Origin: Clostridia bacterium
Lineage (GTDB): Bacteria; Bacillota; Peptococcia; DRI-13; UBA5745
NCBI GenBank assembly: GCA_018434325.1
Contig: JAHDPO010000044.1
Span: forward strand, 53,711-117,710
Length of the DNA: 64,000 bases
Reading direction: 5' to 3'
The notes below the pieces were generated by a model. It was not told where the DNA came from. It searched no databases and saw only the letters and a program-made list of their open reading frames with translations. Numbering within the stretch: position 1 is the first letter of the stretch; the number at the start of each line of letters is the position of its first letter. Positions 18,747-48,370 of the stretch are shown here, piece after piece. Position numbers and translations under genes: made by a program.

Positions 18747-18797
18747 GTTATTATTGCCGTTATTATTGCCGCCCTTGCTGCAATACTTGGTGTTTGC

Positions 18798-19151
18798 TTA
18801 TTCTTCCGTATCGGCCATCAGCCGGGCCGGCTGATTGAGCACACCGGTCATATAGCCCTTTTGGTGCATTTTAGCCACGTGAGCTCTTAAGGTCTGCTCG
18901 ATATCCACCTCGTACTCTTTTTCCAGAACATACATCATGGTCACTGCGGTCTGGGCCACATCCACCAGCTCTTCCACGATCAGCTGCACCACCCGCTGCT
19001 GTTCCAGCCGGCTGGGCTCGCCGCTCATGCCCCTGTATTTGCCGATGACCTGGGCCAGCTCACCGGTTTCCTCCATCAGCTTCAAGGCTGTGGATTCAAG
19101 GGTAGGATTCAGCCCGTCCAGACAGGGTAAAGAAATAGTCTTTCCTTTCAT
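18798..19151 (-). CDS. MazG-like nucleotide pyrophosphohydrolase
   Basis: KLMEETGELAQ, EELVDVAQ. Confidence 0.8.
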   Translation of the reverse strand: MKGKTISLPCLDGLNPTLESTALKLMEETGELAQVIGKYRGMSGEPSRLEQQRVVQLIVEELVDVAQTAVTMMYVLEKEYEVDIEQTLRAHVAKMHQKGYMTGVLNQPARLMADTEE

Positions 19152-24495: not shown

Positions 24496-24554
24496 AAATT
24501 GCCCTACTCCCGTTTAATATTCTTGCAGCTAAGAGGCGGCCTGACATTGCCGCC

Positions 24555-40727: not shown

Positions 40728-40790
40728 TCCGCTTGCGGATATAATACCGCAATGGTAAAATACACCTATCACAAGGCTGGAGGCTCGCTT

Positions 40791-41699
40791 ATGAAAATCG
40801 GAATATTTGGCATCGGCGGCGTTGGCGGCATAGTCGGCGGCGCTCTGGCAAGAAACCATGCGGAAACCTATTTCTATGTCCGGGGTGAAAACCTTAAAGC
40901 CATCCGGCAAAAGGGACTGAAAGTAGAATCCGCCTCGCTGGGTGATTTCGTGGCCCATCCCAAGCTGGCTTCAGACAATGCGGCAGAGCTGGGAATCATG
41001 GACGTGATTATCCTGTCCTGCAAAGGCTACAACCTCAAAGAGGCCTGTGCTGCCATCGGCCCCATGACAGGGCCCGGCACAATAGTCATCTCCTTGCTTA
41101 ACGGCGTTATCGTCTCCGACATCATGGAGCCCCTGCTGCCCCCCTGCATCCTCGCCGACGGCGCCATCCGGGTATTCAGCTGGCTGACAGAGCCCGGCCA
41201 TATCCTGCAGAGAGGCTTATGCAGCATTACCTTCGGCATGAAAGACGGCAGCAGGCCGCCTCAGTTTGAAGAAATAGCCGCCCTCCTCAACCGGGCCGGC
41301 ATACCGACCACGCTGTCCGCCGATATTTTGACGGACAGCTGGATTAAGTACGTCCTGATGGGCAGCAGCAGCACATTGTATTGTTACTATGACGGCCCGG
41401 CGGGCAAAGTCAAGGAGGACCCAAACCACGAAGCGGTGCTGCGGGCCATCGTCGGCGAAATGACCGCGGCAGCCGCGGCCAAAGGCATCGCTCTTCCTGA
41501 AGATTTAGCGGACTTTTGCGTGGAGCAGTTTGCCAAGGTGCCGCCGGATACCATGACCTCTCTTTACCGGGATCTTAGCGGCGGCAAAGCGGCAAAAGAT
41601 ACCGAGCTGGATCACATCATCGGCCGGATGGTTGAATTTGGTGAGCAAACCGGCGTAGCCACTCCCTATCACAAGGCCGCCTATACTCGCTTTGCCTGA
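40791..41699 (+). CDS. ketopantoate reductase-family protein
   Basis: GIGGVGG, LLNG, SLYRDL..TELD. Confidence 0.9.
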   Translation: MKIGIFGIGGVGGIVGGALARNHAETYFYVRGENLKAIRQKGLKVESASLGDFVAHPKLASDNAAELGIMDVIILSCKGYNLKEACAAIGPMTGPGTIVISLLNGVIVSDIMEPLLPPCILADGAIRVFSWLTEPGHILQRGLCSITFGMKDGSRPPQFEEIAALLNRAGIPTTLSADILTDSWIKYVLMGSSSTLYCYYDGPAGKVKEDPNHEAVLRAIVGEMTAAAAAKGIALPEDLADFCVEQFAKVPPDTMTSLYRDLSGGKAAKDTELDHIIGRMVEFGEQTGVATPYHKAAYTRFA

Positions 41700-41932
41700 A
41701 GCGCCGGCTTCAGTCCGCCTGCGTAAAAAAATAGAGGATGTCTCTTCATGAATCGATCATGTTGAGGCATCCTCTTTCTCATTGTATTGTTTCCCCATTA
41801 CCCCGCCAACAACCCGTTTGTACCCGACATCTGAATATCCGTATTTCCGCGCAAACTGCGTAAGCCTGTTTTCGCATATAGCTGCTTGCTCTGTACAGTT
41901 GTCGCATATAAAAAATGATGTGTCTGTAGCCC

Positions 41933-42078
41933 AATGTCATGATTCGGGTGTCAAAAGTCATGTTTTATAAATTTTGATGAACAAGCATACTATACATAGT
42001 GTCTGGCATTTTTATAAACCATCATATATAGTATGCTTGCTGTTGCTTCGTACCTTTTGACACCCGAATCATGTCATT
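41933..42078. mobile_element. MITE family A, copy 1 (146 bp)
   Basis: 25-bp TIR AATGWCATGATTCGGGTGTCAAAAG; inner IR AAGCATACTATA/TATAGTATGCTT. Confidence 0.85.
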
Positions 42079-42160
42079 TAGATAAGGGTCAAATGAAAAA
42101 GCGAAAGTGGCAGGGTAGTTACCGTCTGTGGCTGGGAGCAGTGATCCTTAGGCGATTCTG

Positions 42161-42297
42161 TCCTACGGACACAATCCTACGGATACAATACTGCAGATTC
42201 AATCTGCTATCCGCAGATCCTGGGGCGCAGATGTTCCGCTATCCTGAGATATTTAGCACGCGAATGCTCTGCTATCCTGAGATAATTGGGGCACAGC
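42161..42297. repeat. degenerate tandem repeats (3 x 14 bp, then 3 x ~33 bp)
   Basis: TCCTACGGAYACAA units; CYGCTATCC at 42204, 42236, 42269. Confidence 0.65.
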
Positions 42298-42520
42298 TGT
42301 ACAATTTTTGCGTTTGTATGCGTTTCCCGGGTTTGGCCTGTACAATTTTTTCGTTTGTAGGTGAATTGCAGCAGCTGCCGAGCCTATTTTAGCCAAATCG
42401 AGGCCTATTTTGCGCAATTTTCTTCGGTTGTGGCCGAATACTTGCCCTGCATTTTACATACAAACGCAATTTTTGTACACCCAGCCCCTGCCAATTGACC
42501 ACAACCGCAATTTTTGTACA
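42298..42520. repeat. dispersed repeat family C, copy 2
   Basis: Boxes at 42298, 42339, 42411 and reverse at 42460, 42501; TGTACAA...TTGTACA ends. Confidence 0.8.
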
Positions 42521-42630
42521 AGCTACCCCGCCAAGGGTCCTAACAGCAGTAGCGGGAGTCATCGCTGCATTGTTCTATTGACGCAGTATCGGCTAATGCT
42601 CCATGAATTCGCCAACTTTTTGCTTATCTT

Positions 42631-42776
42631 AATGACATGATTCGGGTGTCAAAAGTCACGTTTTATAAATTTGGATGAATAAGCATACTATACATAGTGG
42701 ATGGGCTTTGTATAAACCATCATATATAGTATGCTTGCTGTTGCTTCGTACCTTTTGACACCCGAATCATGACATT
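42631..42776. mobile_element. MITE family A, copy 2 (146 bp, direct orientation)
   Basis: 136/146 identical to copy 1 by manual alignment. Confidence 0.85.
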
Positions 42777-43013
42777 GGTCTGTAGTCTTATTACAAACCT
42801 TCTTTTTTTCGTTATTAAAGAAGAGTCCGGGAATTTTCGTATCGAGAAAAGGGCGATTTAGGACAATTTCAAACCCAACTCTGATTTAGAAAGCTATTAT
42901 AAGTTATCCCTATGTAAAAGCCCAATCTCTGCATGGGCGGATCAAATAATCCATAGGTATATTTTTTAGAGCAAATCCGGTGCGTATGCATCCTATTCGG
43001 AGGTAAGTAGAAA

Positions 43014-43445
43014 ATGCAGCTAAAAATGATGACGGACTATGCGATTCGAATCCTAATCTACATGCAGACAAAAGGGGCGACCGTAACGCGTCAGGAGATT
43101 TCAGCGGCGATGAGGATTACGGAGGGACCTTTAATCATGGCGCTGCGCAGGCTGCGGGATACGGGCTGGATTGAATCCTCCATAGGCTCAGAGGGCGGCT
43201 GGCGGCTGGCCAAAGCGGCGGAGAATTTATCCCTGTTGGATTTGATGAAGATTACGGAGGATACGATACGAATTAATCGCTGTTTAGAAAACGATCAATT
43301 CTGCAGCCGCAACGCAGTGGGCGTCTGTCCCGTGCATGATGTGTATAAACGCTATCAGGAAATAACGGAGGATTATTTTTCCCTCGTTACAATCGGTGAT
43401 CTGATAAAACCGTATCCGGAGAAAGAAGGAAATCAACAAACATGA
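43014..43445 (+). CDS. Rrf2-family regulator with three Cys
   Basis: TDYAIRIL, GSEGGWRL, CLENDQFCSRNAVGVC. Confidence 0.9.
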   Translation: MQLKMMTDYAIRILIYMQTKGATVTRQEISAAMRITEGPLIMALRRLRDTGWIESSIGSEGGWRLAKAAENLSLLDLMKITEDTIRINRCLENDQFCSRNAVGVCPVHDVYKRYQEITEDYFSLVTIGDLIKPYPEKEGNQQT

Positions 43446-46400
43446 AAATAAAAATGATGAAATCAAAAAAAATGATGGCCCTGCTCTTGGCTGTTATGAT
43501 GCTTCTGCCTTTTGGCACCGGCGCCACAGCCAGCTTGCAGGCTTTAAACGCCGAAGGCTCCGCGGTGACCACTCAGAATGCGACGGAGCCAATAGACGCG
43601 GAAGATCAACTTGCCGCCGGCAACGCCGGAGACTCCGAAAAAGCCCTCGAAACGGAAGCGCCTCCTGAAACAGAAGAGCCGGCAGACACGGAAGAGCCGG
43701 CAGATACAAACGAATCGACAGACACGGAGGAGCCTGATGAGGCGCTGGCGGCGAATCCGGTGGCCGCAGAAGAAGCATTCGGCCTGTTGGGCATCGGCGG
43801 GCCTGTGCCCGCTACCTTTGAGCTGCAGTGGACCAGCCCTGCAGCCGCCGGCCGCACCTATGACAGTAACGGCGTATGCCAGCTGACGCCGGATTACAAC
43901 AGCGCCGCTACCGCCGTCGGCACCATCGCCCAGTGCACCGTCACCTTTGCCCTCGGCGGCGACACCCCAGCGCAGCCCGGCGAAGTGGAAATCCGCCTGC
44001 CCCAGTATGTGTTCCAAGACCGGAATGGAAATTTCCAAGGGACATTGAAGATGGGTGTCTCCGATAAGGAGGAGGGCGTCACTGATTTTTACTACTACCT
44101 GGATACCGCCAAACAAGAGATCGTCATCATTAATTACGCCGTTATCGAACCGGCCTCTGTCTTTAAGTGCGACGTGGAGTATCGGAGCAACGGCGAGGCT
44201 TCCATGCTGCCCTCCAAGATCAAGGACAAGTACCGTCATGAATTTGACGCCAAAGCGACCATCGCCCTGGGCGATAATGAACCCGTAACGGCCTCTACCG
44301 GCGCTATCGCCCTGCAGCATAACACCAGGGCCAGTTTGGGGACCCTTACCAAAAGCACGGTTTCGAATCTGCCGGTCAAGTATGAACTCTGGCAGAGCAC
44401 ATGGGGAGCCCGGCCGGCCGATGCGGACGACTACTTCTATGTTGTGTGGACCGTCATGCAGAGTCTCAACGCAAGCACTCAACCTTATAGCGTCAGCTTT
44501 ACCGATACTCCCGATGCAAACGGGGCGGTGGTTGGCGTCGGCACGTCCAAAAGCTTGCCAAACTGTGCAGGCGTCACCTCCATCCCTTTTATTTACAATA
44601 TCCCCTCCGCCAGCGGCAGCATCAGCCTTTATGTGCTGACCCGGCACCCCCGCACGGCTCTTGATCAGGGCGCAAAGGCCTTCACCAACAATATCCAGGC
44701 CACCTTGACCGGTGTGGATGGGGCGACGGACACAAAAAATGCACAGGCTTCTTATACCTATGTGGGCAAGGGTTTTCAATATCCCGGAAATAACTATAAC
44801 ATTTATAAGACCTATATCAACGGACATTCCTACCGCAGTTGGATCAACAAGCTTGAGGCCGGCCAGACGGCCGATATTGAAAACTTTTCACCGTATACCA
44901 TCACGACCGGCTGGGACCTGACCCTCGGAGAGGGTGCCGACCCCACTGTCTATGAGAATTACGGAAAGGCGCCCTATACCATTGAGTTGACCGACGACCT
45001 GATGACACTCAATTACGTCCGGCTGCTTGATGGGGACTATGCTTTTACCTCATTTTATCTCACCTTCAGCGAGCTGAACTATGTACAGAACGCTCAGACC
45101 GGCGCCTGGGCCACCGCCAACGACACAAATTATGAAGTATGGAAGCCAGTAACCATCCAGTACCAGACTGGGATAAACGGTTCCTGGCAGACCCTTGGCG
45201 CCGTAAAGCGGACGGGGACCAGCTATACCTTTACCTCTTCCGACGGTGTTTCGGCGGCCCAACCGGTCAGCGCCGCCAGCGAAATTCCCATCCCCGCCGG
45301 GGCCACCGGTGTGCGGGCCCTGCATGACACGACCTATTATAGTACGCAGATCAACCTTTACCTCAGAACAGTGCTCTATCCAAGTATGCACCTGCTCTCT
45401 CTGCTGGAGGGGTTGGCTGCCGTTGATATTTGGAACGTAGACACCCTGCGGGTGTTTGATGCGCAAGGCAACTGGGTCAATGAGCAAAGCAGCGTCAATC
45501 TCAACGCCACCATTACTGCCAATGCCAAAACCAAACTTCTTCCCGTGATCAGGGCCCGGGATCAGGGCCTTTTTACGCAGCACTCCGCGGCCCTTAAAAC
45601 AATTACAAGAGCCGCTAACAGCACCATTATGGAAAAGTCCGCCGCCTATACCAACGATGTTGACAACGGCTGGGTCAAAACCCGATATAAAGCTACGCTG
45701 AGAGAAACGTTCAGCAATAGCGGCTCCGGCTGGACCCTTGAGGAAGTTTTGGATTGGGGTTTCCTGACGGTGCAGACCGAGGGAACCTTCTATGACCTGC
45801 TCCCTTCCGGCATGAACGTGGACGCCGCCTCCCTCAAGGTTTGGACTTTCCGGGGCGTAACAAATATGGATACCCCTTCTTGTGACCAGTATCGCTGCGG
45901 GCACACGATTGATCTTGTGCCAAACTGGAGGGGCAGCGGCCGGACCATGATGATCATCCATGTGACGGCGCCCACCGACGCGGTCAATGTCTACAAGCAC
46001 ATGAACAGCTATGAGAGCGGCTTTCATCTGCAATATGATGCCTATTATCCCTGGGACAGCATCGTCGACTTCGGCATGTCCCCCCGCAACAGCATCGCCT
46101 ATAAATCCGGCGTAGGGGCCTTGGGCAACGGATACCCCGACAATGGCGGAGGAATTGTCGACAGGCTTCTCATGGCGGATCTGGACGGCGACGGAAACCC
46201 TGCGGGTACGCTGAGCGATACGGTTTACGGACAGATTGCCACAGCCTTTACCTTCCCTGTTTCCGCGGAGCTATCCTTCGCCAAGCGGGTCAAGGCGGCG
46301 GCCGATCCCAAATATGTGCTGGAAACCTCCACCGTGGGCGGCGGAGATTACAGCTACCGCCTGCGCCTTGCTTCACAGAAAAATATGACAACCAAAGGCA

Positions 46401-48370
46401 TCATCCTCTATGACGTGCTGGAGGCTTACAATCCGGATAACCCCAATCGCTGGAGCGGCGCCCTCAAAGGTGTGGACGTCAGCCAGCCCCTTGGCAAGGG
46501 CGTGAAGGTGGTGACATACTATTCCACCCAACCGGGGCTGGACATAGCCAATGCTGCCGGCGACCGTGACCTGACGGCTGCGGCCAAATGGTCCTCCACG
46601 CCCCCTGGTGATCTTTCCACGGTAACTGCTCTGGCCTTTGACCTGCGCACGGCAACCAACGGGCAGCCCTATGTACTTCCGTCCGAACAGACCCTTTCGG
46701 TAGTCATCCACATGAATGCGCCGATGGAGAACATAAAGGCCCTTGAAACGGCGGATGCCCGCGCCTACAACAGCTCTTGGTTTGCGGGGACCACCACCTC
46801 CATTTCCTCAAGTGATTCCAACGATAATCTGCTGGAAACCCAAAATACGGCGGTGGGCATCCGGGGACCGGAGCTGGAGCTCCATAAAAAATCCGACCCC
46901 CTAAGCGGTACGGACGCAGCCCCTGCGGAGGTAGGCGAGAGCGACGGTCTTGTATACGATGTTTATGTGACCAACAAGGAAACAGCTTTATCCATAGAGG
47001 CTATCAAAATCGTGGATACTATTCCCACGGGGCTGACCATCGATTTTGAAAATATCAAATGGTATGCCGGCTCCGACCCGGCAAACGCTGCCCTGGTGAA
47101 GGGTTCCTCCCAGGTGACAGCCAGCCGCGACGAGCAGATACTGACCTTCACGGTGGATAGGCTGGCGGCTGGTGAGACCATCCATTTCCTGATCCCCACA
47201 ACGGTAGACGAGAATGGCAAAACTATGCAGTATGCGAATACAGCCGAGATTACGGAAATCGGCGGCGCAGCCTATGTGCTGGAAAGTGAAACTACCTACC
47301 ATAAAAAAGCAGGCAAATCCACCGGCGACTTAACGGTAAGCAAGACAGTTTCCGGCAAAGGTGCGGACGCTGCTAAGGACTTCACCTTCACCGTGACTCT
47401 GGGCGATACCGCCATCAGCGGTACATATGGGGATATGGCCTTTGAAAATGGCGCGGCGGCCTTCACTCTCAAGCACGGCGAGGGCAAGACCGCAAGCGGT
47501 CTGCCTGCGGGCATTGCCTATACCGTTGCGGAAAGCGGCAACGACGGGTATACCGTCACTGTAAACAGAGGCAGCGAAGCCGAAGCCACTGGTGCGATCC
47601 TTGAAAATGAAACGGTTGCCGCCGCCTTCAACAACGATAAGCCCGACTCTTCCGGCCCCGGAAATCCCGACCCTGACCCCGCCTCAGTGAGCCTCACCGC
47701 CCAAAAAACGCTGGACGGCGCCGCTCCGGAGGGAAAGACCTTTTCCTTCTACTTGAAGGATAAAGGCGGAAATATTCTTCAATCCAAGCAAAACAGCAGC
47801 GACGGAACCGTCAGCTTCGATACCCTCTCCTTCAACCGTGTTGGAACCTATACTTATACACTGGCAGAAGCCGCCGGCGCTGATTCCACCATTACCTATG
47901 ACACCGCCGTCTATACCATCACGGTCAAGGTGAGCTTGCAGGGTAATGCATTGGAGGCAGACCTAAGCTATCTCAAAAATGACGTAGATCATACCGGCAC
48001 TTTAACCTTCGCTAATACCACTGTGTCAACTACGCCCCCGAACCCCGAAGGCCCCGGTAACCCCGACGGCCCCGGCGAGTCCGGCACACCTGACGAACCC
48101 GGCACACCTGACGAACCCGACGAGCCCGGCGAGCCCAGTAATCCTGACCAACCCGGCACATTAGAGATTGAAGATCCCGACTTGCCGTCCGGCGGAAGGC
48201 CCGGCAATCCCACAGATCCACAAAGGCCTATTGATCCCGGCGTTCCCAAAACCGGCGATAATTCCAGTAACGGGCTGCTGACTGCACTCATGGTCCTCTC
48301 CCTGCTTGGCATGGGCCTTACCGGACTGCTATTGAGCGGATCAGGCAAGCCCAAAACCGAGCAAAGGTAA
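43442..48370 (+). CDS. 1642-aa cell-wall-anchored surface protein (DUF11-like, Ig-like and FctA/Spy0128-like domains)
   Basis: Signal peptide, TEEPAD repeats, Pro-rich stalk, VPKTG + TM + basic tail. Confidence 0.9.
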   Translation: MKIKMMKSKKMMALLLAVMMLLPFGTGATASLQALNAEGSAVTTQNATEPIDAEDQLAAGNAGDSEKALETEAPPETEEPADTEEPADTNESTDTEEPDEALAANPVAAEEAFGLLGIGGPVPATFELQWTSPAAAGRTYDSNGVCQLTPDYNSAATAVGTIAQCTVTFALGGDTPAQPGEVEIRLPQYVFQDRNGNFQGTLKMGVSDKEEGVTDFYYYLDTAKQEIVIINYAVIEPASVFKCDVEYRSNGEASMLPSKIKDKYRHEFDAKATIALGDNEPVTASTGAIALQHNTRASLGTLTKSTVSNLPVKYELWQSTWGARPADADDYFYVVWTVMQSLNASTQPYSVSFTDTPDANGAVVGVGTSKSLPNCAGVTSIPFIYNIPSASGSISLYVLTRHPRTALDQGAKAFTNNIQATLTGVDGATDTKNAQASYTYVGKGFQYPGNNYNIYKTYINGHSYRSWINKLEAGQTADIENFSPYTITTGWDLTLGEGADPTVYENYGKAPYTIELTDDLMTLNYVRLLDGDYAFTSFYLTFSELNYVQNAQTGAWATANDTNYEVWKPVTIQYQTGINGSWQTLGAVKRTGTSYTFTSSDGVSAAQPVSAASEIPIPAGATGVRALHDTTYYSTQINLYLRTVLYPSMHLLSLLEGLAAVDIWNVDTLRVFDAQGNWVNEQSSVNLNATITANAKTKLLPVIRARDQGLFTQHSAALKTITRAANSTIMEKSAAYTNDVDNGWVKTRYKATLRETFSNSGSGWTLEEVLDWGFLTVQTEGTFYDLLPSGMNVDAASLKVWTFRGVTNMDTPSCDQYRCGHTIDLVPNWRGSGRTMMIIHVTAPTDAVNVYKHMNSYESGFHLQYDAYYPWDSIVDFGMSPRNSIAYKSGVGALGNGYPDNGGGIVDRLLMADLDGDGNPAGTLSDTVYGQIATAFTFPVSAELSFAKRVKAAADPKYVLETSTVGGGDYSYRLRLASQKNMTTKGIILYDVLEAYNPDNPNRWSGALKGVDVSQPLGKGVKVVTYYSTQPGLDIANAAGDRDLTAAAKWSSTPPGDLSTVTALAFDLRTATNGQPYVLPSEQTLSVVIHMNAPMENIKALETADARAYNSSWFAGTTTSISSSDSNDNLLETQNTAVGIRGPELELHKKSDPLSGTDAAPAEVGESDGLVYDVYVTNKETALSIEAIKIVDTIPTGLTIDFENIKWYAGSDPANAALVKGSSQVTASRDEQILTFTVDRLAAGETIHFLIPTTVDENGKTMQYANTAEITEIGGAAYVLESETTYHKKAGKSTGDLTVSKTVSGKGADAAKDFTFTVTLGDTAISGTYGDMAFENGAAAFTLKHGEGKTASGLPAGIAYTVAESGNDGYTVTVNRGSEAEATGAILENETVAAAFNNDKPDSSGPGNPDPDPASVSLTAQKTLDGAAPEGKTFSFYLKDKGGNILQSKQNSSDGTVSFDTLSFNRVGTYTYTLAEAAGADSTITYDTAVYTITVKVSLQGNALEADLSYLKNDVDHTGTLTFANTTVSTTPPNPEGPGNPDGPGESGTPDEPGTPDEPDEPGEPSNPDQPGTLEIEDPDLPSGGRPGNPTDPQRPIDPGVPKTGDNSSNGLLTALMVLSLLGMGLTGLLLSGSGKPKTEQR

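Follow-up and report, generated by a model that had tools for sequence, protein, structure and literature searches.

Organisation of the locus

The window, by which is meant the whole 64,000-nt stretch of Clostridia bacterium DNA that was analysed, belongs to a 3.83-Mb draft genome of 70 contigs that is 98% complete. Within it, a ketopantoate-reductase-like (panE-like) gene is separated from the genes of an Rrf2-family regulator and a 1642-aa surface protein by an element made up of repeats, the components of which are listed in Table 1. The flanks on both sides of this element are unique in the genome, and 226 nt lie between its end and the ATG of the Rrf2 gene (43014). A previous interpretation made from the sequence alone (the sequence-only reading) had placed it some 240 bp upstream of an adhesin operon; the first gene encountered is that of the Rrf2 regulator, with the surface protein gene following it.

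Table 1. Components and neighbours of the element (positions are those of the window)
Feature	Position	Strand	Evidence or remark
ketopantoate-reductase-like gene (ApbA/PanE domains), upstream neighbour	40752..41699	+	domain match
B target duplication, left copy (GTCTGTAGCC)	41922..41931		9/10 against 42778-42787; 9-10 bp in other B copies and IS4-type relatives
B left terminal repeat, outermost 9 nt (CAATGTCAT)	41932..41940	+	final 7 nt (41934-41940) are the first ATGTCAT of A-left
A-left, 130-bp MITE, likely IS1182-type, ends GATTCGGGTGTCAAAAG / CTTTTGACACCCGAATC	41941..42070	+	hairpin fold z = -7.8
A-left duplication ATGTCAT, second copy	42071..42077		7/7 identical to 41934-41940
B body	42078..42638	+	rest of left repeat (TTAGATAAG...), short tandem repeats, 225-bp core, right repeat to ...CTTATCTTAATGACAT
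core module inside B, inverted sets of a ~22-nt motif (TGTACAATTTTTGCGTTTGTA)	42297..42521		also dispersed by itself
A-right duplication ATGACAT, first copy	42632..42638		inside B right repeat
A-right, second 130-bp MITE, likely IS1182-type	42639..42768	+	same orientation as A-left; hairpin fold z = -7.8
A-right duplication ATGACAT, second copy	42769..42775		7/7 identical to 42632-42638
B right terminal repeat, final 2 nt (TG)	42776..42777	+	comparison with B copies of the same genome
B target duplication, right copy (GTCTGTAGTC)	42778..42787		sequence read directly
Rrf2-family regulator gene, downstream neighbour	43014-43445	+	domain match
1642-aa surface protein gene, DUF7601 and FctA isopeptide domains	43442-48370	+	domain match

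Repeat comparison revealed two direct copies of 146 nt each (41933-42078 and 42631-42776), identical at 136 of 146 positions (93%), with a start-to-start distance of 698 nt and an interval of 552 nt (42079-42630) between them. Directly outside the bounding CAATG...CATTG, GTCTGTAGCC and GTCTGTAGTC match at 9 of 10 positions, for which our own arithmetic gives a chance of about 3e-5 (at least 9/10 at a fixed position), and the inner ends of the 146-nt copies are without any such 10-bp duplication. The outermost 25 nt on the left and right are perfect complements of one another, as are the 25 nt at the two inner ends, and the inner inverted repeat extends into AGATAAG/CTTATCT (I1, 38 nt, 92%; I2, 30 nt, 97%). 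The direct copies, the outer 10-bp duplication and the two pairings had been described in the sequence-only reading, and each was confirmed here.

Element B and its IS4-type ends

The sequence-only reading had regarded the 552 bp between the direct copies as non-coding DNA carried as cargo. Only short overlapping ORFs were found in it, in keeping with the first half of that description; the second half did not survive, as BLAST searches against the 3.83-Mb genome demonstrated that the interval is a repeat with many copies, whilst the 146-nt unit has only three copies (two in the window and one at contig C30). Matches of the 552 nt consistently reached 8 nt into each 146-nt unit. When both inserts (designated A) were excised, each taken as an A core plus one duplication copy per end, the remaining element (designated B; 41932-42777 in the window) was 572 bp long, with ends that pair at 17 of 18 positions. 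At least 50% of B was covered at 16 loci of this genome, the window included, with 72-88% identity and with three of them covering all of it, and the inner 225-bp module was present alone at a further 27 loci. B is thus short, non-coding and multicopy.

Uninterrupted copies of B in this genome start with CAATGTCATTTAGATAAG and finish with its complement, and in those at C70 and C41 the outermost CAATGTCAT runs straight into TTAGATAAG. Target duplications were evident at C39 (GGACTGGCGG/GGACTGGCAG, 9/10), C41 (AGCTCCTGGT/AGCTCCTTGT, 9/10) and C70 (8/9). In a public collection holding one genome per species, the exact 18-mer CAATGTCATTTAGATAAG was found in at least 119 stretches, and among the matches listed most were from Lachnospiraceae and many lay at contig ends. 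Among 28 paired ends at the listed loci, a perfect 10-bp duplication was present at six and a perfect 9-bp duplication at five (for instance GCAAAATCAC at L251 and GGTTGTACAC at L198); the remaining pairs had weaker duplications or represented one element recurring across several genomes.

The nearest sequenced relative of B is an insertion sequence from a Blautia sp. MAG (L162:2164-3775), a 1612-bp element bounded by inverted 18-nt ends identical to CAATGTCATTTAGATAAG, in which CAATGTCAT likewise continues directly into TTAGATAAG and with which B has in common duplications of 9-10 bp. Its 444-aa ORF matched PF01609 (1.9e-26) and the NCBIfam model IS4_1 (NF033592; 176 bits, cut-off 115), and is accordingly a transposase of the DDE_Tnp_1/IS4_1 type. 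Unlike this insertion sequence, B is 572 bp long and non-coding, with an unrelated body that includes the 225-bp module of repeated 22-mers. Judged by its ends, the length of its target duplication and its non-coding, multicopy nature, B is an IS4-family-derived MITE, and the 10-bp duplication is its own. The IS4-family ends and target duplications of about 10 bp recognised in the sequence-only reading therefore apply to B, as the ends of the L162 insertion sequence demonstrate, and not to the 146-bp repeats to which they had been ascribed.

Element A and its 7-bp target duplications

The two A cores each lie within a perfect 7/7 duplication, ATGTCAT on the left and ATGACAT on the right. The 146-bp units are consequently not MITEs with mismatched ends, as had been proposed, each instead comprising a 130-bp A together with its own 7-bp duplication inside the terminal repeat of B. 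Searches of Rfam with the element retrieved only sub-threshold hairpin look-alikes, the best of which reached 30 bits where the gathering score is 65.

A public genome scan located the 19-mer of the A end, ATGATTCGGGTGTCAAAAG, in at least 117 stretches. Among the matches listed, the upstream flanks were unrelated to one another and were not CAATGTC, save at three sister-species loci, and inverted pairs of the A end lay 62-315 bp apart, as expected of MITEs. The unrelated flanks elsewhere also rule out that the repeat of A, counted from CAATG, is a diverged homologue of that of B. From the listed matches, 58 distinct A-type elements outside the genus were assembled for a test of target duplication, with the three sister-species loci dropped. 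At exactly 7 nt outside GATTC...GAATC, the left and right flanks were identical at all seven positions in 22 of the 58 and at six or more in 33, the other 25 being less alike than 6/7. None was perfect at 8 nt, and only five were perfect at 6 nt. When left and right flanks of different elements were paired as a control, 1.0% were perfect and 5.8% matched at six or more positions, and windows displaced by 7 nt gave no perfect match at all. The flanking dinucleotides also covary (AG with AG, AT with AT and CT with CT), which indicates that they belong to the duplication and not to the A-type element. On these flank comparisons, the A family, which is widespread in Clostridia, makes 7-bp target duplications. 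The target consensus of the family is approximately ATWWTAK with an A/T-rich centre, from which the ATGTCAT of the window differs in that centre.

Amongst the ORFs beside solo A-type ends in the listed matches, a transposase was encountered in only 1 of 29 (L125). This is a partial protein of 421 aa on a 1.6-kb contig, with a match to PF13751 (DDE_Tnp_1_6) of 58 bits (cut-off 25); its best NCBIfam match was IS1182 (NF033551), at 93 bits and thus below the cut-off of 270. The ORF stops 36 nt before the right end of the contig, ...CTTTTGACACCCGAATCAT, which matches the A end exactly. Relatives of this protein (39% identity) are flanked by ends that are similar, though not identical, to those of A, namely CTTTTGACACCTTAATCAT at L144 and L145, and ATGATGTTGGGGTCAAAAGG at both ends of L143. 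No complete insertion sequence with both exact A-type ends was recovered among the public loci examined. A is nevertheless likely to belong to an IS1182-type family, given the end that it has in common with the partial transposase contig. Other loci considered as autonomous partners were rejected: the end pairs of L121 and L122 are 1.1 kb apart and enclose ordinary genes with no transposase, L024 and L053 proved to be short elements adjoining housekeeping genes, and the sequence at L198 is masked.

The absence of a transposase, claimed in the sequence-only reading for the window, was found to extend to the cognate transposases of both elements throughout the genome. A profile search of the draft gave no match to PF01609, and no relatives of the L162 transposase were detected in this genome or in those of two sister species of the same genus (G004 and G005), all of them drafts in which repeats are possibly unassembled. 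Neither PF13751 matches nor relatives of the L125-type transposase were present in the 98% complete draft, and G005 has only a distant IS1182-like insertion sequence with different ends (GAGGGCACTGAAAAAG).

The sequence-only reading had offered two origins for the structure, in the first of which two 146-bp MITEs captured the 552 bp and moved with it as a non-autonomous composite by means of their outer ends, making the 10-bp duplication. That the duplication is confined to the outer ends, and that these pair perfectly, would suit such a composite. The middle, however, is itself a full member of a MITE family with 16 copies, the canonical ends of which are restored by joining the outer nucleotides to the sequence just inside each A, whilst each A core is enclosed by its own perfect 7-bp duplication, the hallmark of the A family. 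Moreover, this genome has no second A-B-A copy, a free-standing unit of 146/148 bp was seen in none of the ten A copies or relics of the three genus genomes, and among the matches listed from outside the genus the A end does not follow CAATGTC. We consequently regard movement as a composite as extremely unlikely, and this part of the earlier proposal was discarded.

Nor does the reverse relationship, in which A-B-A is the ancestral long form and the common B arose from it when the hairpin between the 7-bp repeats was lost by slippage, agree with the family data. Hairpins between short direct repeats are classic deletion substrates, and the hybrid or eroded ends at C66, C60 and C69 of this genome and at G005:C86 could be read as products of that process. 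The uninterrupted 18-nt end, however, bounds transposase-bearing IS4 elements in many other taxa, which implies that the uninterrupted state is ancestral, and A is a family apart, which makes 7-bp duplications of its own at unrelated sites. An ancestral A-B-A is, on this evidence, barely credible.

Probable nesting of A in the ends of B

Within the 61 related genomes searched, A was found only in the present genome and in G004 and G005. The junction between the two elements (...CCCGAATC ATGTCAT TTAGATAAG...) is repeated at C30 of this genome, where A has its interior in the opposite orientation to that of A-left. All ten A copies or relics in the three genus genomes occupy the same B-type end site. 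In G004, A copies lie at B-type ends at C4, C21, C34 (truncated) and C2 (a 59-bp short form), and in G005 at C24 and C44, the host element at C44 carrying A at one end only; eroded or hybrid relics of A at B ends were identified at G005:C86 and at C66, C60 and C69 of the present genome. The genus copies are located in either arm, in both orientations and in at least three different B bodies. The public genome scan found no A-B junction outside the genus, the two stretches retrieved being a sister species and a chance match in a coding region.

The second origin that had been offered, namely that a circle carrying B and one A recombined into a resident A to give A-B-A, is likewise scarcely tenable. 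Homologous integration would leave the A copies as direct repeats, as they are here; however, it requires a free A with IS4-type tips to be already resident, and the three genomes contain no such copy. The A-B junction is also found with A on one side only, at G005:C44 and at C30 of this genome, which signifies that the junction can arise without integration. Furthermore, A-left and A-right are 91.9% alike, no more so than each of them is with the C30 copy (91.9-93.9%), the three copies of this genome being 92-94% alike overall. As the two are no closer to one another than to C30, two separate insertions and a single insertion copied across to the other end would be indistinguishable by this measure.

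The same junctions bear upon whether the structure could be an artefact, created when short reads of a metagenome were assembled into a bin and repeats of separate loci were fused. In favour of this, B copies lie at many contig ends of the 70-contig draft, and contigs from public runs break inside the element; none of those listed spans the whole of it or bridges the inner-left junction, and stretches without cover in these runs are uninformative. Set against this, A-left and A-right can be told apart at 10 positions, and the element has unique sequence on either side; with zero differences, a contig from one public run covers the left outer junction (41500-41996) and another, from a different study, runs from the right arm of B into A-right (42448-42711); and the same junction sequence is present in two sister species. 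An assembly artefact is accordingly very unlikely.

The arrangement is, with high probability, one of nested and now fossil MITEs, in which a single B was hit twice by A, once in each end repeat. B, a 572-bp non-autonomous IS4-family derivative, would have inserted between the panE-like and Rrf2 genes by means of a transposase supplied in trans, and its anatomy suggests that 10 bp (GTCTGTAGYC) were duplicated in doing so. The 130-bp hairpin A would then have inserted into nt 3-9 of the terminal repeat of B, once at each end, each event probably duplicating the 7-bp target, which reads ATGTCAT on the left and as the complement ATGACAT on the right; the same target was available at both ends because the ends of B are inverted copies of one sequence. 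Each peculiarity of the locus follows from this nesting. The outer ends pair perfectly because both are the tips of B itself, and the inner ends pair further because the duplicated tip is followed there by the rest of the repeat of B. The one base at which the ends of each 146-nt unit fail to pair is the T/A in the middle of the target, of which the two ends show opposite strands, and the duplication of 10 bp is found only on the outside because it belongs to B. What had appeared to be a composite with swapped ends is thus ordinary nested MITEs, the product of two known kinds of event.

Whilst the identities between sequences, both kinds of target duplication and the links of each end to its family can be read directly from the sequences compared, the order of the events and the separateness of the two A insertions are deduced, as is the present immobility of B. 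IS4-type transposases such as that of Tn5 read approximately 19 nt of the end, and as only 9 nt per end still adjoin the tip, B is probably immobile. The sequence-only reading had held that the unit could excise; as the genome yielded no cognate transposase, neither transposition nor transposase-driven excision is expected today. Taken together, the missing transposases, the 8% divergence between the A copies and the mismatch in the duplication of B suggest that the element is a fossil, although the body of B could be lost if the direct A copies recombined.

Comparison of the orthologous locus, which had been proposed alongside the sequence-only reading, did not provide a readable empty, B-only or single-A allele in G004 or G005, where conservation (81%) is confined to the upstream panE-like gene and the DNA beyond it is different. 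In public runs from two related strains, the flanks of which are 94-97% alike, the contig skips 41788-42829 and has 57-59 other letters instead. These two strains are without the element and also without 176 nt of its flank, and hence do not represent a clean empty site; the element is nonetheless not fixed in the wider lineage. A scan for promoters and terminators gave seven weak promoter-like sites against 3.2 expected, none of them informative, and there was no indication that the element affects the downstream genes of the regulator and the surface protein.

The recurrence of A at a single site may reflect a preference for that site. The target ATGTCAT lies inside a small palindrome, CAATGTCATT. 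There are 310 ATGTCAT sites in this genome, of which 11 are in intact B tips and six in tips followed by A-type sequence, and approximately 9,400 sites that resemble the A consensus. It is possible, although less likely than not, that A homes on the palindrome at the tip of the IS4-type repeat (CA|ATGTCAT|T) and so disables a rival MITE by splitting its repeat 9 nt from the end. The location of 10 of 10 genus copies at one site, despite many alternative sites, speaks for such homing; against it, copies that share descent do not count as independent events, and outside the genus the A family displays no preference for B tips.

Nested transposons and MITEs are commonplace. Composite transposons of the Tn5/Tn10 type owe their outer ends to the flanking elements. 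The present structure resembles these in that two like elements enclose DNA and only the outside bears a target duplication, and differs in that the outer ends and the duplication are those of the middle element, with each flanking A having a target duplication of its own. Insertion sequences such as IS30 and IS911 aim at the ends of related elements, and here too one element lies inside another and one terminal-repeat site has been used repeatedly, as in nested insertions generally. Unlike in the IS30 and IS911 case, the invader (A, likely IS1182-type) comes from another family than its target (B, IS4-type), and neither is autonomous.

The main value of the analysis is one of correction, the composite giving way to the insertion of a MITE followed by that of a second MITE into each of its end repeats. 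In addition, the end motifs CAATGTCATTTAGATAAG (IS4-type) and GATTCGGGTGTCAAAAG (probably IS1182-type, with 7-bp duplications) mark families that are very widespread in Clostridia, and both may aid the annotation of repeats in metagenome bins from the gut and from wastewater. No description of either motif was found in the literature searched, which returned three unrelated primer matches.

With regard to the IS1182 family, IS1272 of staphylococci is reported (PMC5678879) to target palindromic or stem-loop sequences and to replace the target stem-loop without a duplication. The end of A is matched exactly by the right end of the partial L125 transposase contig, and the location of its target in the palindrome would fit the preference reported for some members of the family. 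It is unlike IS1272 in that the A family makes clean 7-bp duplications and that A itself is a 130-bp non-coding hairpin and not an insertion sequence. The repeated use of one 7-bp site in the tip of another element offers a small, testable case of target choice by what is probably an IS1182-type element.

Variation at the insertion locus and within the B body

The intergenic region between the panE-like gene and the Rrf2-family regulator gene is variable within the lineage, since contigs of related strains from two public metagenome runs carry 57-59 other letters in place of window positions 41788-42829, between flanks that are 94-97% alike to those of the window. Within B, the 572-bp non-coding IS4-family MITE, the tandem repeats of the left arm differ in copy number among copies, with more units in that of contig C30, for example. 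The B body also contains a 225-bp module built on a ~22-nt motif, TGTACAATTTTTGCGTTTGTA, present as two direct, one central and two inverted copies. This module alone is common to 27 other loci of the same genome, where it is set in different repeat contexts, and it may be another nested element, the third and an older one, or else a group of sites for protein binding.

Coordinates of repeat features and element copies
Feature	Location	Detail
Short tandem repeats, B left arm	window 42161-42290	TCCTACGGAYACAA x2; CGCTATCCTGAGATA-like x3
Module with inverted sets of ~22-nt motif	window 42297-42521	inside B body
B copy with hybrid end	own-genome C66:~24500-24526	
B copy with hybrid end	own-genome C60:~18790-18816	
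B copy with hybrid end	own-genome C69:~43260-43282	
B copy with hybrid end	L267 (G005:C86) ~300-328	
B copies with palindromic repeats in flanks	own-genome C70, C30, C41, C9, C1, C66; L002, L005, L008	
IS1182-like IS, G005 copies	L140 = G005:C58, L141 = G005:C34, L142 = G005:C19	
A-family loci with TTTCCTAT(G/A) flank	L033, L034, L043, L046, L053, L085, L102 and others	

Hybrid ends and surroundings of B copies

At the hybrid ends of B, an A-type end (A being the 130-bp hairpin MITE, probably IS1182-type) was either fused straight onto the B body or A was reduced to AATC. These ends look like former A insertions that were subsequently eroded via deletion at short repeats. Other palindromic repeats often enclose B copies, including GAGGGCNCCTCTCC...GTTTTCTTCGCTGTTTTGAGAC and CAATTGGTTTTCGAAAACCAATTG hairpins with the look of terminators. 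Nested small repeats are dense in this genome.

An IS1182-like element and the occurrence of end motifs

The sister species G005 harbours an IS1182-like IS of ~1.65 kb, with an ORF of 500-551 aa, ends of GAGGGCACTGAAAAAG and flanking 9-bp duplications (AGTTTATAG, CTACAAACC, GGTTTGTAA). All three copies were inserted within TGCAAAATTGCAGGTTTGTA-type motifs; these target motifs are similar to the 225-bp module of B.

Among the matches listed, the end motifs of A (L023-L139) and B (L146-L264) were carried by many Lachnospiraceae, and were exactly conserved also in records whose titles point to distant phyla (Alistipes, Tannerella, Anaerolineaceae, Spirillospora, Saprospiraceae and Flavobacterium). 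Either the motifs have spread horizontally over a very wide range or the bins are contaminated. Many of the listed Lachnospiraceae A-family copies were preceded by a recurrent flank, TTTCCTAT(G/A), which hints at a longer preferred target or a larger repeat around them.
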